Positions 21,700-25,042 of a stretch of 40,321 nt of DNA are shown piece by piece. Position 1 is the first letter of the stretch. Each line of letters opens with the position of its first letter. A program made the translations under genes and the position numbers. The notes beneath the pieces were generated by a model. That model was not told the DNA's origin, made no database searches, and saw only the letters and a program-made list of their open reading frames with translations. This DNA comes from Candidatus Eiseniibacteriota bacterium (GTDB lineage Bacteria; Eisenbacteria; RBG-16-71-46; SZUA-252), in the NCBI GenBank assembly GCA_031370645.1, contig JANMQV010000143.1, positions 1 through 40,321 of the forward strand, in the 5' to 3' direction.

Positions 21700-23226
21700 A
21701 TGACCGCCGCTCGCCCACCCTTGGTCGGCCTTGTGATTCTCGACGGCTGGGGACTACGCGCCGGGCGGGATGGAAACGCCGTGGCGCTCGCGCGGACCCC
21801 CGTGATGGACGCGCTCGTCGCCCGCTATCCGCAGGCGACCCTCACCACGTGCGGTGAGGCCGTCGGTCTTCCCGACGGGCAGATGGGGAACAGCGAAGTC
21901 GGCCATCTCAACCTCGGCGCGGGACGCATCGTCTATCAGGACCTCACCCGGATCGACCGCGCCGTCGCCGACGGATCGCTCGCGCGAAACCAAGTCCTCC
22001 TCGCGGCGGTGGAACGCGCCAAGGGCCGGGGACGAATCCATTTTGTCGGGCTCCTTTCTCCGGGTGGGGTCCACAGTCACGAGAAACACGTGCAGGCCAT
22101 GATTCGAATCGCCTCGGAGGGGGGCGTCGCCCATCCCTTTGTTCACGCCATTCTCGACGGTCGCGACACCGCGCCCCGTTCAGCGCGACGGTCGCTCGAA
22201 GAGACGGAAACGCTGCTCCGCGCGCAAGGCGGCGCGATTGCGACGGTTTCGGGACGTTTCTACGCGATGGACCGCGACAAGCGATGGGATCGGACCGAAC
22301 GCGCCTACCGCGCGATGGTTGGCGGCGTCGGAGAATCGGCGCGCTCTCCGGTCGAGGCGCTGGAGCGAGCCTACGCGAGAAATGAAGGGGACGAATTCGT
22401 TCTGCCGACCGTCATCGAGGGGGTGAACGGGCGGATCGAACGTGGCGACGTCGTGGTCGCGTTCAACTTCCGTCCCGACCGGATGCGGCAGCTCTCCCGC
22501 GCCTTCGGCGATCCGAGATTCGACGCCTTTGCTCGCCCCGAGTGGCCGCTCGCTCTTCAGTACTCCTGTATGACGAGCTACGACGACACCTTCACGTTTC
22601 CGGTTCTCTTCACCGACGAGCCGCTTCGCCGCACGATCGGGGAAGTCGTGAGCGAGGCCGGGATCCGCCAGTTGCGGATCGCGGAGACGGAGAAGTATGC
22701 GCACGTCACCTACTTCTTCAACGGGAGCGGGGAGACGCCCTTCCCGGGCGAGGAACGCGCGATGATTCCTTCGCCGAAAGTCGCGACGTACGATCTTCGC
22801 CCGGAGATGAGCGCGCGGGAGGTGACGGACGAAGCGGTCCGGCGGCTCTCGACCCCCGACTTCGGGTTCTTCGTCCTGAACTATGCGAATGTCGACATGG
22901 TGGGGCACACCGGAATCATCCCCGCGGCAGTCGCCGCCGTGGAGACCGTGGATGAGTGCCTGGGACGTCTCCTGAAGGCCGTGGAAGCGCGAGGCGGATT
23001 GGCCGTCGTCACGGCGGACCACGGAAACGCCGAGCTGATGGTCGACGAAGCGACCGGCGAGCCCCACACGGCCCACACCCTCAATCCGGTGCCGGTCTTC
23101 GTGGCGGGGAACGGCCCCTACCCTCTTCGGAACGGGATTCTCGCGGATGTGGCGCCCACGCTCTTGGAACTCCTTCAAATCAAGGCCCCACCCGAGATGA
23201 CCGGACGGAGCCTGATCCAACGCTAG
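21700..23226 (+). CDS. gpmI: 2,3-bisphosphoglycerate-independent phosphoglycerate mutase
   Basis: LVILDGWG, GQMGNSEVGH, GRFYAMDRDKRW, AETEKYAHVT, DMVGHTG, TADHGNAE, HTAHT. Confidence 0.98.
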   Translation: MTAARPPLVGLVILDGWGLRAGRDGNAVALARTPVMDALVARYPQATLTTCGEAVGLPDGQMGNSEVGHLNLGAGRIVYQDLTRIDRAVADGSLARNQVLLAAVERAKGRGRIHFVGLLSPGGVHSHEKHVQAMIRIASEGGVAHPFVHAILDGRDTAPRSARRSLEETETLLRAQGGAIATVSGRFYAMDRDKRWDRTERAYRAMVGGVGESARSPVEALERAYARNEGDEFVLPTVIEGVNGRIERGDVVVAFNFRPDRMRQLSRAFGDPRFDAFARPEWPLALQYSCMTSYDDTFTFPVLFTDEPLRRTIGEVVSEAGIRQLRIAETEKYAHVTYFFNGSGETPFPGEERAMIPSPKVATYDLRPEMSAREVTDEAVRRLSTPDFGFFVLNYANVDMVGHTGIIPAAVAAVETVDECLGRLLKAVEARGGLAVVTADHGNAELMVDEATGEPHTAHTLNPVPVFVAGNGPYPLRNGILADVAPTLLELLQIKAPPEMTGRSLIQR

Positions 23227-23357
23227 GGCCCCGCCGGGGCTCGAATGTGCGGGATTTCGCCCCGGAGAATGGGGGGAGGCACCCAGGATCGGGTCTGATT
23301 CAGGGGTTTACGGGCCCCCCGAGTTCGGGCCCCGCTCAATCGCCGAGAGGCGATTCA

Positions 23358-23410
23358 TGTCGAAATTTAAAGACGAGCTGTAAATGGCTTAATTATAGAT
23401 AGTTACAGCT
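23358..23410 (+). promoter_or_regulatory. Putative enhancer-binding-protein UAS (TGTC-N10-GACG) plus AT-rich inverted repeat / IHF-like site
   Basis: TGTC 23358-23361 and GACG 23372-23375; perfect IR AGCTGTAA-N19-TTACAGCT at 23376-23410; strongly AT-rich against the GC background; about 65-120 bp upstream of a -24/-12 element. Confidence 0.5.
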
Positions 23411-23473
23411 AAGCAATTTTCCACTCTTCCCCCCCTCCCGTCGGGCTCAATCTCTTCGCCCCGCAGCGACTCG

Positions 23474-23488
23474 CGGCACGTCGATTGC
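23474..23488 (+). promoter_or_regulatory. Sigma54 (-24/-12) promoter CGGCACGtcgaTTGC
   Basis: Exact GG-N10-GC spacing; matches the TGGCACG-N4-TTGC consensus except at the first base. Confidence 0.7.
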
Positions 23489-23499
23489 CATGATGTATC

Positions 23500-23682
23500 G
23501 GCGTGATCGCCAACTAGAAAGTTCCCTGCAGCGTCCGCGAGAATCGCTTGGTCCTGAGCTGATCCCCTCGACGAGACGACGCAGTTTCACCGGCACCAGG
23601 TGCACGGCGCAGGCGGGGAACGTTTAACGGGGCCACGGCCCCCACGAAGCGCCCGGATCGAATCCGGGCGCTTTCGTCGTTT
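23500..23682 (+). ncRNA. Candidate sigma54-dependent structured sRNA or 5' leader (unassigned family)
   Basis: Long irregular hairpin 23521-23621 closed by GTTCCC/GGGAAC; hairpin GGGGC-CACG-GCCCC at 23629-23642; terminal 12-bp hairpin. 5' end inferred from the sigma54 element. Confidence 0.5.
23647..23682 (+). terminator. Intrinsic terminator-like hairpin AAGCGCCCGGAT-CGA-ATCCGGGCGCTT
   Basis: Perfect 12-bp stem followed by an imperfect T-rich tail (TTTCGTCGTTT). Confidence 0.6.
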
Positions 23683-23799
23683 CCGGTCCCGCGGCGAAAG
23701 CCATTCGCGTCGATCGTTTGAATCCCCCGGGTCGCTCTGTTAGGGTGATTCCTGGCCGGGCGCGTTTCATGCGCGCCGATTCGGAACCCAGAGGACTCG

Positions 23800-24684
23800 A
23801 TGGCACGGAATCGCTGGTTGTGGGGCTGCGCGTTATTGATCGTCGGGACCGTGGCGACGGTCGCGCTCGCGTTCTTCGTTGTGAACGTCGCGATGAGCGG
23901 CGATGAATTCGGCATTGCCCAGCTCCACGGTCGCGTGGGGTTGGTTGAAGTCGTCGGAGAAATTTCCGAATCGGAGTCGGTGGTGGACCAGATCGACCGG
24001 ATGCAGCGCGATCCGAGCGTGAAGGCCGTCGTGGTGCGCCTCGACAGTCCGGGCGGCGGCGTGGCGGCTTCGCAGGAAATCTACGACTCGGTTCGCCGCT
24101 TGCGCGACGCCGGGAAGCCGGTCGTCGCCTCCATGGGCGGCGTGGCCGCTTCGGGCGCCTATTACGTCGCCTGCGCTGCCGATTCCATCGTCGCCAATCC
24201 GGGCACCCTCACGGGGAGCATCGGAGTCATCATGAGCTTCCCGAATACCGAGGAGCTCTTCCGCAAGGTCGGCGTCCGCTTCGAGACGATCAAGACCGGC
24301 AAGTTCAAGGACGTCGGCTCGATGTGGCGACCCATGACCGACGACGAGAAGACCCTGCTTCACGAGGTTCTCACCAACGTCTACGACCAGTTCATCGACG
24401 CAATCGTGGACGGACGGAGCATGGCGCGAGAGGACATTCTTCCGTACGCGGATGGGCGCATCTTCTCCGGCGATCAAGCCCAGGAGTACGGCTTCGTGGA
24501 CCGCCTGGGGAGCCTCGAGGAGGCGATCACGATGGCCTCGGAGATGGCCGGGATCGAGGGGCGTCCATCGGTCGTCCGGAAGGAGCGCCGGCGCGTCTCC
24601 GTTTTCGACTTTTTGGACGAGAAGATGAACCCCATGAAGGGGTTGCTTGGCTCCGGGCCCCGCCTGGAGTTCCGCCTGCGCTGA
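23800..24684 (+). CDS. sppA: Signal peptide peptidase SppA (S49, short type)
   Basis: N-terminal TM, RLDSPGG, SMGGVAASGAYY, TLTGSIGV, KTGKFKD, ADGRIFSG. GAGG RBS. Confidence 0.93.
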   Translation: MARNRWLWGCALLIVGTVATVALAFFVVNVAMSGDEFGIAQLHGRVGLVEVVGEISESESVVDQIDRMQRDPSVKAVVVRLDSPGGGVAASQEIYDSVRRLRDAGKPVVASMGGVAASGAYYVACAADSIVANPGTLTGSIGVIMSFPNTEELFRKVGVRFETIKTGKFKDVGSMWRPMTDDEKTLLHEVLTNVYDQFIDAIVDGRSMAREDILPYADGRIFSGDQAQEYGFVDRLGSLEEAITMASEMAGIEGRPSVVRKERRRVSVFDFLDEKMNPMKGLLGSGPRLEFRLR

Positions 24685-24760: not shown

Positions 24761-25042
24761 ATGACGAAGGCCGATCTGGTTGACGAGATTTCGGAGCGCA
24801 CGAAGGTTTCAAAGAGCGAAACCGCGCTGATCGTCGACCAGCTCCTGAACGCGATTTCGCGCGCGTTGAGCGAGGGAAAGCACATCGAAATCCGCGGCTT
24901 CGGCACCTTCAAGGTGCGGGAACGGAAGGCCCGGAAGGCGCGCAATCCCCGTAGCGGCGCGGAAGTGATGGTCCCGGCGAAGCTGGTGCCGGTCTTTAAG
25001 GCGTCGAACGAGCTGAAAGGCATGGTCCGCGGTTCCGAGTAG
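24761..25042 (+). CDS. HU / integration host factor family DNA-binding protein
   Basis: MTKADLVDEIS, IEIRGFGTF, ARNPRSG, VPVFKAS. GGAGG RBS. Position after sppA resembles ihfB synteny. Confidence 0.95.
   Translation: MTKADLVDEISERTKVSKSETALIVDQLLNAISRALSEGKHIEIRGFGTFKVRERKARKARNPRSGAEVMVPAKLVPVFKASNELKGMVRGSE

Follow-up and report, generated by a model that had tools for sequence, protein, structure and literature searches.

The known sigma-54-dependent small RNAs (sRNAs), such as GlmY, Qrr1-5, Pxr, CrcZ and NrsZ, are included in Rfam, and most of them act by base pairing. RsaE/RoxS are sRNAs with C-rich loops, and Gram-positive bacteria have sRNAs of the C-rich-loop type that are independent of Hfq. 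The closing stem of 6S RNA occupies the place of downstream promoter DNA in RNA polymerase, and Ms1, an actinobacterial 6S-like RNA, is about 300 nucleotides (nt) long. In two papers, Ms1 and other actinobacterial 6S-like RNAs are described as coexisting with 6S or replacing it, and as binding polymerase in a form that is not the primary holoenzyme (PMC9130861, PMC11077062). Here we analysed a stretch of 40,321 nt from Candidatus Eiseniibacteriota bacterium (contig JANMQV010000143.1 of assembly GCA_031370645.1), called the window below, and within it the 573-nt gap between gpmI (stop at 23226) and sppA (start at 23800). The gap encodes a small non-coding RNA, very probably independent, of a previously undescribed family, which is widespread in Candidatus Eisenbacteria, a phylum of which we know no cultured member.

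With the sigma-54-dependent sRNAs the locus shares a putative -24/-12 promoter, which would depend on an enhancer-binding protein, and a short RNA with its own terminator. It differs from them in lacking any sequence or structure match in Rfam, in belonging to another phylum and in its 6S-like stem, which has no counterpart there; moreover, no activator gene was seen adjoining the RNA at the loci examined. With 6S (RF00013) it has in common the sequence and pairing of the basal stem, as they occur in the phylum's own 6S, the rod shape, the usual single copy and, in most families, a run of U directly after the stem. Unlike 6S, which measures about 180 nt, the RNA described here measures about 101-110 nt over its rod, lacks the large two-stranded central bubble and the terminal stem (15-59 nt stand in place of 95-137 positions of the model), has one apical loop of about 20 nt in its 101-nt rod, stands behind a putative sigma-54 promoter and coexists with a canonical 6S in every genome checked. 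Ms1 offers an analogy, since binding of polymerase is the kind of role proposed for our RNA; there is no known sequence relation between the two and no Rfam match here. RsaE/RoxS are comparable in that a conserved unpaired C-rich hairpin loop could pair with Shine-Dalgarno sequences, and no Hfq was found in the window's own genome (G000, a 3.0-Mb assembly, 95 % complete). They differ in having several such loops where our RNA has one, they show no sequence relation to it, and no targets were found here.

An earlier reading of this DNA from its letters alone (the sequence-only reading) had proposed for the gap a -24/-12 element followed by a structured RNA and then by a terminator of its own, and all three proved to be conserved among relatives. 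The elements of the locus are as follows.

23521-23621, + strand: irregular rod of 101 nt, the conserved core of the RNA family
23551-23586, + strand: apical part of the rod, including a C-rich loop of about 20 nt
23474-23488, + strand: sigma-54-type -24/-12 element CGGCACG-TCGA-TTGC, with GG at 23475-23476 and GC at 23487-23488
23500-23511, + strand: predicted 5' hairpin GGCG-UGAU-CGCC (thermodynamic fold)
23630-23643, + strand: GC hairpin GGGGCC-AC-GGCCCC (fold)
23645-23682, + strand: terminator hairpin of 12-13 bp plus T-rich tail (fold)
23376-23410: AT-rich inverted repeat AGCTGTAA-N19-TTACAGCT, with its centre about 82 nt upstream of the -24 GG
23358-23375, + strand: TGTC-N10-GACG, the candidate enhancer site of the sequence-only reading (read from the sequence)

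Because in a single genome the promoter match is at chance level and the fold signal is weak (z-score of -2.57 for the window's copy and -3.15 for the opposite strand), the case rests on comparison with relatives. The thermodynamic fold alone fails to separate the strands. When the gap was searched with blastn against 60 relatives, 35 of the 36 genomes of the window's own taxonomic family, spanning four genera, were matched. The 24 genomes of other families gave no comparable match, only one of 29 nt in the 3' part of the gap (E 0.002). Within the genus, conservation extends from 23462-23471, just 5' of the -24 element, through to sppA, and between genera only about 23521-23621 is conserved, with 85-91 % identity. 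The apical part of the rod, 36 nt at 23551-23586, is invariant in 29/30 loci of the family, the last one (L035) having a single substitution. This invariance extends over four genera, although their gpmI proteins share only 65-73 % identity with that of the window. Across the phylum, UGAUCC is retained in 39 of 40 aligned sequences.

The helices flanking the apical part vary with compensatory changes in the family alignment. For this alignment (30 loci, 25 distinct sequences), RNAalifold predicted a rod of 35 pairs, six of which have changes on both sides, and 99.8 % of the cells were paired as against 36-48 % when the 3' partners were slid by 1-3 columns. The family loci were then joined with 15 distant copies into a phylum alignment of 39 distinct sequences, where 17 of the 35 rod pairs show compensatory changes, so the covariation that the sequence-only reading had suggested looking for among relatives is present. 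Compensatory cells numbered 92, compared with 19 in shuffles, and none of 500 shuffles reached as high a value; 95.5 % of the cells were paired, compared with 36-51 % when slid. The phylum alignment was fitted to a covariance model, which biases these figures towards the structure; RNAalifold's own prediction on the model-fitted alignment gave the same rod with 29 pairs, of which 15 are compensatory. Covariation is free in the middle helices, and the five innermost pairs of the basal stem are invariant in all 39 sequences. U-G and G-U pairs are also invariant (39/39) at two positions, and they fix the strand, since on the other strand they would be A-C mismatches. All model matches lie on the strand downstream of the promoter. 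We have hardly any doubt that the structured RNA is real.

Regarding the ends of the RNA, 12 consensus pairs make up the terminator hairpin over the 30 loci of the family; eight of them show compensatory changes, and a T-rich run follows the hairpin. A simple promoter and terminator scan of 23000-24000, limited to sigma-70 promoters, called nothing, and the terminator was missed because its T-run is interrupted. In most families other than the window's own, a U-run stands directly 3' of the rod, so that the basal stem itself looks like a terminator. Comparable small 5' hairpins were seen by eye in the family alignment, and a hairpin of different sequence occupies the position of 23630-23643 in the family loci (by eye in alignments). 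The earlier outline of a fold of about 180 nt, consisting of a 100-nt rod, a GC hairpin and a 12-bp terminator hairpin, was thus reproduced, with covariation in rod and terminator, and the sRNA in the window's genome is predicted to be about 180 nt long.

A small protein was considered as an alternative product of the gap and rejected. The 45-amino-acid open reading frame at 23490-23627 has no Pfam match, its boundaries vary among loci, and the variable columns (11, 10 and 9 of 33, 34 and 34 over the three codon positions) show no third-position bias.

The element at 23474-23488 matches 10 of the 11 specified positions of TGGCACG-N4-TTGC and has the GG-N10-GC spacing. At 45 loci, 30 of the family and 15 from other families, we took the best GG-N10-GC word in the 200 nt preceding the rod, scored over the 11 consensus positions, with 1038 windows taken from the same loci as controls; the loci are related by kinship and so are not independent trials. 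A score of at least 8/11 was reached at 45/45 RNA loci against 7.7 % of the control windows, at least 9/11 at 36/45 against 0.8 %, and at least 10/11 at 20/45 against 0.1 %. All 30 family loci keep GG-N10-GC in an alignment whose upstream sequence is not alignable. The variants there are GGCACG/GGCACA, GGTACA, GGAACA or GGTCCA, followed by N4 and TTGC (CTGC in two), and the distance from promoter to rod ranges from about 30 to about 100 nt. Outside the family, (T/C/G)GGCA(C/T)-N5-TTGC lies within 140 nt upstream of the rod in 14/15 loci, and the fifteenth has TGGCACAAGGATTGC 157 nt upstream; across the loci of the phylum the distance is 11-157 nt. To be retained amid diverged surroundings and at a changed distance from the rod is the behaviour expected of a functional promoter.

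The protein machinery for such a promoter is encoded as well. The window's genome has rpoN (462.7 bits), which the sequence-only reading had wished to see confirmed, and 19 matches spanning nearly the whole Sigma54_activat domain, that is, about 19 full-length enhancer-binding proteins. Across the phylum, rpoN is found in 148 of 151 genomes, including families without the RNA. Taken from the geometry of sigma-54 promoters with the GC at -12, the transcription start would lie near 23500, at the foot of the 5' hairpin. Judged from these sequence comparisons, we consider it highly probable that the RNA is sigma-54 dependent.

In one genus (L019-L023, L029 and L030) the leader between promoter and rod is 30-65 nt longer. 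There, and in the metatranscriptome contig X5, GGAGG is always found about 20-25 nt before the rod, and it could pair with the C-rich loop.

Upstream of the promoter the picture is less sharp. The enhancer site TGTC-N10-GACG proposed by the sequence-only reading is present in the window, only partly shared with the closest relative (L014), and unconserved in the other loci, so its role as a binding site is not supported. The AT-rich stretch, described earlier as an inverted repeat resembling an IHF site, fared better in one respect: the position of the tract is conserved in 30/30 family loci, with an AT fraction of 0.52-0.70 at -110 to -60 from the -24 GG (background about 0.3) and with GTAA/TTAC words concentrated at -90 to -60. 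Its sequence is not alignable, the inverted repeats differ from locus to locus, and an inverted-repeat search among the family loci found no common dyad. The tract is a candidate site and could hold an activator site, a bend made by IHF/HU, or both. The nearby IHF/HU gene to which the sequence-only reading had drawn attention is indeed present as hup, in a conserved sppA-hup pair, and nothing ties it to the promoter.

The RNA is not confined to the window's own family. An exact 26-mer of the loop was found in 32 species records of the genome collection, 25 of which are titled Candidatus Eisenbacteria. The seven others (L042, L045, L053, L056, L065, L067 and L071) carry the names Bacteroidota, Binatia, Acidobacteriota, Omnitrophota, Limnocylindrales, Dormiibacterota and Hyphomicrobiales, and are probably mislabelled or mis-binned contigs of metagenome-assembled genomes. 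A covariance model of the family copies gave full-length matches in 16 genomes from eight other families of the class (120 genomes). With a second model, built from 40 copies, the RNA was found in 107 of 151 genomes of the phylum and, among those of high quality, in 84 of 118; counted here is also the unpublished genome G081, which contributes one f17 match. By family, it is present in 30/31 genomes of f1, 55/60 of f9, 6/7 of f8, 5/6 of f17, 4/5 of f11, 2/2 of f12, 2/3 of f18 and in the single genomes of f2 and f3 (1/1 each). No covariance-model match was obtained in the 34 genomes of f5, f6, f7, f10 and f13-f16.

The RNA is usually present as a single copy, and five genomes (G157, G084, G110, G135 and G156) have two. 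The copies of G157 stand in tandem at C82:2586-2690 and C82:3112-3215, about 420 nt apart. In f9 (L097, L098, L100, L104 and L105) the rod is preceded by a leader of 80-93 nt and followed by a second long hairpin, GGGCCCCG...CGGGGCCC, and then by ATGAT plus a T-run; the RNA of this family may be about 280 nt long. It is also from f9 that the copies left unmatched by the phylum's 6S model (see below) come.

We searched the window and its relatives against Rfam. At the gathering threshold the whole window gave no match, and neither did the 15 non-family loci at E 0.01 or better. The sole Rfam match of any weight was to 6S (RF00013), with 30.1 bits and E 3.6e-4 in 801 nt, below the threshold of 46.4. 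It covers the model from one end to the other, except that 15 nt take the place of 95 positions at its centre, and in the window copy the sequence flanking the apical loop on the 5' side is aligned to where the central bubble begins, at its 5' edge, in the Rfam consensus of 6S. The sequence-only reading, which had seen no match to any family, was thus right as far as the threshold goes and overlooked this weak relation.

The canonical 6S of the window's genome lies elsewhere, at C126:8931-9111 on the + strand (L001 1501-1681), and scores 88.8 bits. A U-run stands directly 3' of its closing stem, and GG-N10-GC was not seen by eye in the 100 nt upstream of it. Canonical 6S was also found in 41/41 relatives, including genomes of f4-f7, f10, f13 and f14 in which the new RNA was not found, and in five distant genomes, four of them outside the 41. 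The idea that our RNA is the 6S gene of its genome was therefore rejected; the RNA also falls below the RF00013 threshold. Nor is the RNA a member of the 6S family, since it fails the defining 6S architecture. An Rfam match to a known family such as 6S was the outcome that the sequence-only reading had named as removing the novelty; the match is sub-threshold only, and with a canonical 6S encoded elsewhere the likeness leaves the novelty intact.

The likeness itself became clearer with the 6S RNAs of the phylum. Placed side by side, these and the new RNA have the first about 20 and the last about 20 nt in common. An nhmmer profile of seven true 6S RNAs gave 30 matches at E <10 in 137 kb, 27 of which lie at one or other end of the rod, 5' or 3', with order and strand as expected; taken singly, the matches are weak (best E 0.01). 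A covariance model built from 18 Eisenbacterial 6S RNAs, whose E-values are rough owing to a quick calibration, matched 36 of 40 copies at E <=0.02, the best with 36.8 bits and E 2e-8. All of these matches extend over the full model apart from its centre, where 42-59 nt stand for 121-137 positions, and only two off-target matches appeared in 122 kb (E 0.22 and 6.6). In whole-genome scans the RNA was the sole significant match after the true 6S in 4/6 genomes (E 5e-7 to 2e-5). It is thus likely, as far as such similarity goes, that the basal stem is related to the closing stem of 6S, and we conclude that the relation would be explained most simply by descent from a 6S copy whose centre was lost.

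Besides the short RNA, one genome, G090, has two full-length 6S matches above the threshold, at C55:8337-8518 and C42:36048-36224 (63.1 and 57.3 bits). The ends of its second 6S are, on both the 5' and the 3' side, those most like the ends of the short RNA.

As for expression, part of the stretch occurs in 24 listed runs, eight of them recorded as RNA, and four runs from three studies were examined. Each of the four contained one short contig over the RNA, 151-232 nt long with a depth of 2-10; apart from these, a single 36-nt match in sppA turned up in one of the runs. One contig begins at 23516 and at about 23667 passes into sequencing-adapter letters, which means a short insert and fits a small RNA. 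The ends of the contigs coincide with the borders of conservation and are probably assembly breaks between co-occurring strains. The 3' end of gpmI and the 5' end of sppA are uncovered by contigs, which we did not count as evidence. As regards the discrete transcript of about 180 nt starting near 23500 that the sequence-only reading had looked forward to, there are short contigs over the RNA, and two of them extend upstream of the predicted start. Contigs give neither strand nor ends nor level, and we take them as a sign only that the sequence occurs in the RNA libraries of three studies, in which DNA may be present.

The surroundings of the RNA in the window comprise the following features.

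23718-23746, + strand: sigma-70-like sppA promoter TTGAAT-N17-TAGGGT, outside the RNA (by-eye consensus match)
21700-23226: gpmI (Pfam iPGM)
23800-24684: sppA (Pfam Peptidase_S49)
24761-25042: hup (Pfam HU family)

Two GC-rich hairpins, GCCCCG-C-CGGGGC (23229-23243) and AATCGCC-GAGA-GGCGATT (23338-23355), lie 3' of the gpmI stop. Neither is followed by a T-run, and they may end the gpmI transcript.

The position of the RNA in front of sppA and hup raises the question, put already by the sequence-only reading, whether it is a cis-acting leader or attenuator, in which the sigma-54 promoter would drive sppA-hup or other genes and the rod and terminator would set the read-through. In the family, sppA and hup lie downstream in 30/30 loci and gpmI upstream in 29/30, the last locus ending earlier. 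A leader would agree with the RNA being on the same strand as the next gene there and in several other loci (OPT transporter, BMC shell, sppA, hup), and with a terminator standing between promoter and gene, as in attenuators. Outside the family, however, gpmI, sppA or hup is nearby in only 4/15 loci and absent nearby in 11/15, and the genes found instead are functionally unrelated between families and of no constant class: a CAAX-protease-like gene upstream with an OPT transporter downstream, an oligopeptide ABC ATPase upstream, or BMC shell proteins or DUF2284 downstream. Moreover, TTGnAT/TTGACA-N17-18-TAG(G/C)(G/T)T is conserved between the RNA end and sppA in the family loci, and two sppA-linked loci of other families (L101 and L107) have TTGACA-N18-TAGCGT before sppA, so a conserved sigma-70-like promoter stands between terminator and gene. 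The next gene follows at an unconserved distance of 118 to about 350 nt, no antiterminator pairing was evident as an alternative fold, Rfam yielded neither a riboswitch nor a leader family, and the conservation of the rod sequence far exceeds what a terminator needs. We therefore regard the leader as quite improbable: the differing neighbours, the U-run directly after the rod and the promoter-like element of sppA's own make an independent trans-acting RNA the likelier reading, and the RNA is very probably independent of sppA. Still less probable, in our judgement, is that the RNA is real and depends on another promoter or on processing from a longer transcript, the GG-N10-GC element being conserved for some different reason. 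The consensus match occurs at chance frequency in the GC-rich genome of the window and two metatranscriptome contigs reach upstream of the predicted start, both of which would suit this view; no sigma-70-like promoter was called in the region, though the scan was crude. Against it, an element present in 45/45 loci at a variable distance from the rod, within unalignable surroundings, is hard to explain except as a promoter; its GG and GC are always kept and its TTGC nearly always, within the tolerance of sigma-54.

In two loci of different families, the RNA is closely followed, on its own strand, by genes for BMC (bacterial microcompartment) shell proteins, at 1592-2026 in L099 and at 1959-2267 in L100.

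Taken as a whole, the locus is best explained, with somewhat better than even confidence on our part, as an independent sRNA gene, gated by sigma-54, for a truncated relative of 6S. Sigma-54 RNA polymerase would bind the -24/-12 element at 23474-23488, and the start near 23500 would be triggered from the AT-rich region, 60-110 nt upstream, by one of the about 19 enhancer-binding proteins. Transcription would stop at the RNA's own terminator near 23682, and sppA-hup would be read from a separate sigma-70-type promoter. The product would be a relative of 6S that has a short helix plus the C-rich loop of about 20 nt where 6S has its central bubble and terminal stem, made only when the sigma-54 activator fires, and it presumably acts in trans.

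Which partner the RNA would meet there is a matter of two nearly balanced suggestions. The invariant innermost pairs of the basal stem, the sequence of which is also retained in the phylum's 6S RNAs, together with the likeness to 6S and the about 36 apical nt that are invariant across four genera, point to the partner of 6S, RNA polymerase, as the likeliest, and we propose it tentatively. In its fullest form this idea makes the RNA a 'half-6S': a lineage-wide 6S paralogue with the closing stem and the first nucleotides of the bubble only, gated by sigma-54 and binding RNA polymerase. Such an RNA would bind the core enzyme or the sigma-54 or sigma-70 holoenzyme, and would compete with 6S or tune one holoenzyme; we hold this complete version to be speculative. 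Nearly as likely as polymerase is that the C-rich loop pairs with G-rich ribosome-binding sites. Under the corresponding full explanation, itself doubtful, a sigma-54-dependent sRNA would pair through its C-rich loop UGAUCCCC with Shine-Dalgarno regions and block translation without Hfq, and the likeness to the 6S stem would reflect ancestry or coincidence and no common partner. UGAUCC(C) of the apical loop is the only unpaired stretch conserved across the phylum, the family loop AUCCCCUCG is complementary to ribosome-binding sites of the GAGGGG type, and the failure to find Hfq in the 95 % complete genome fits the Hfq-independent sRNAs with C-rich loops. Yet when the genome was searched for exactly complementary sites, none stood out: the best loop matches, of 13-14 nt, are as frequent as those of other parts of the RNA, and of two sites resembling start regions one lies inside a 439-codon frame and the other has its nearest ATG 24 nt past the match, within a 988-codon open frame. 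A search with a chance-level result in one genome decides nothing between the two mechanisms. A pairing seed would also leave unexplained the about 36 invariant apical nt (29/30 family loci) and the invariant basal stem beside freely covarying middle helices.

Several points weigh against the sigma-54-gated, truncated 6S relative that we prefer. In the window's genome alone the promoter match is at chance level: consensus matches of at least 10/11 number 62, compared with 52 for a reversed-order control, and this unenriched count was left out of the evidence. The region upstream of the promoter gave no conserved activator site. The start, end, strand and sigma-54 dependence are predicted from sequence comparisons, and two of the four contigs include letters upstream of the predicted start, among them the -12 region of a relative, which suggests DNA carry-over or read-through. 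The next gene is on the same strand in many loci, and some read-through regulation may occur. The link to 6S has its own weaknesses: the general Rfam model reached E <=1 in only 1/20 other copies (22.6 bits), the window copy matches the phylum model weakly (20.7 bits, E 4e-4), the RNA was not listed in the whole-genome scans of G000 and G026 with that model, and four f9 copies were unmatched by it. Finally, as the bubble that mimics an open promoter in 6S and the terminal stem are missing, polymerase binding in the manner of 6S is far from assured.

A role as a CsrA sponge was also considered and rejected: CsrA is encoded, but the RNA has no repeated GGA loops (by eye). The CsrA gene of the window's genome lies at C131:99439-99594, and an activator gene, at C131:101997-102500, is about 2.4 kb away.

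Full-text searches of the literature, judged on listings and the starts of abstracts, found no regulatory RNA of Eisenbacteria, and the listings and abstract starts on 6S-like RNAs, 6S paralogues and sigma-54-dependent small RNAs describe no such RNA. Sigma-54-dependent sRNAs and 6S-like RNAs are known kinds; to our knowledge, a putatively sigma-54-driven, truncated relative of 6S that stands beside the canonical 6S throughout a phylum is new.

At minimum, the locus defines a new RNA family that is well supported and that, having a covariance model, is ready for curation of the Rfam type. For the biology of the Eisenbacteria, a phylum-wide, single-copy RNA under sigma-54 control would be a well-defined output of one enhancer-binding-protein pathway. 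If the link to 6S means a common partner, the RNA would illustrate how a global regulator of polymerase can be shortened and placed under a signal-dependent promoter, and, as a minimal construct provided by nature, it would help to map the contacts between 6S and polymerase. Should the 'half-6S' prove true, it would join 6S and Ms1 as a third kind of RNA that binds polymerase, the first of them to be made under sigma-54 gating.

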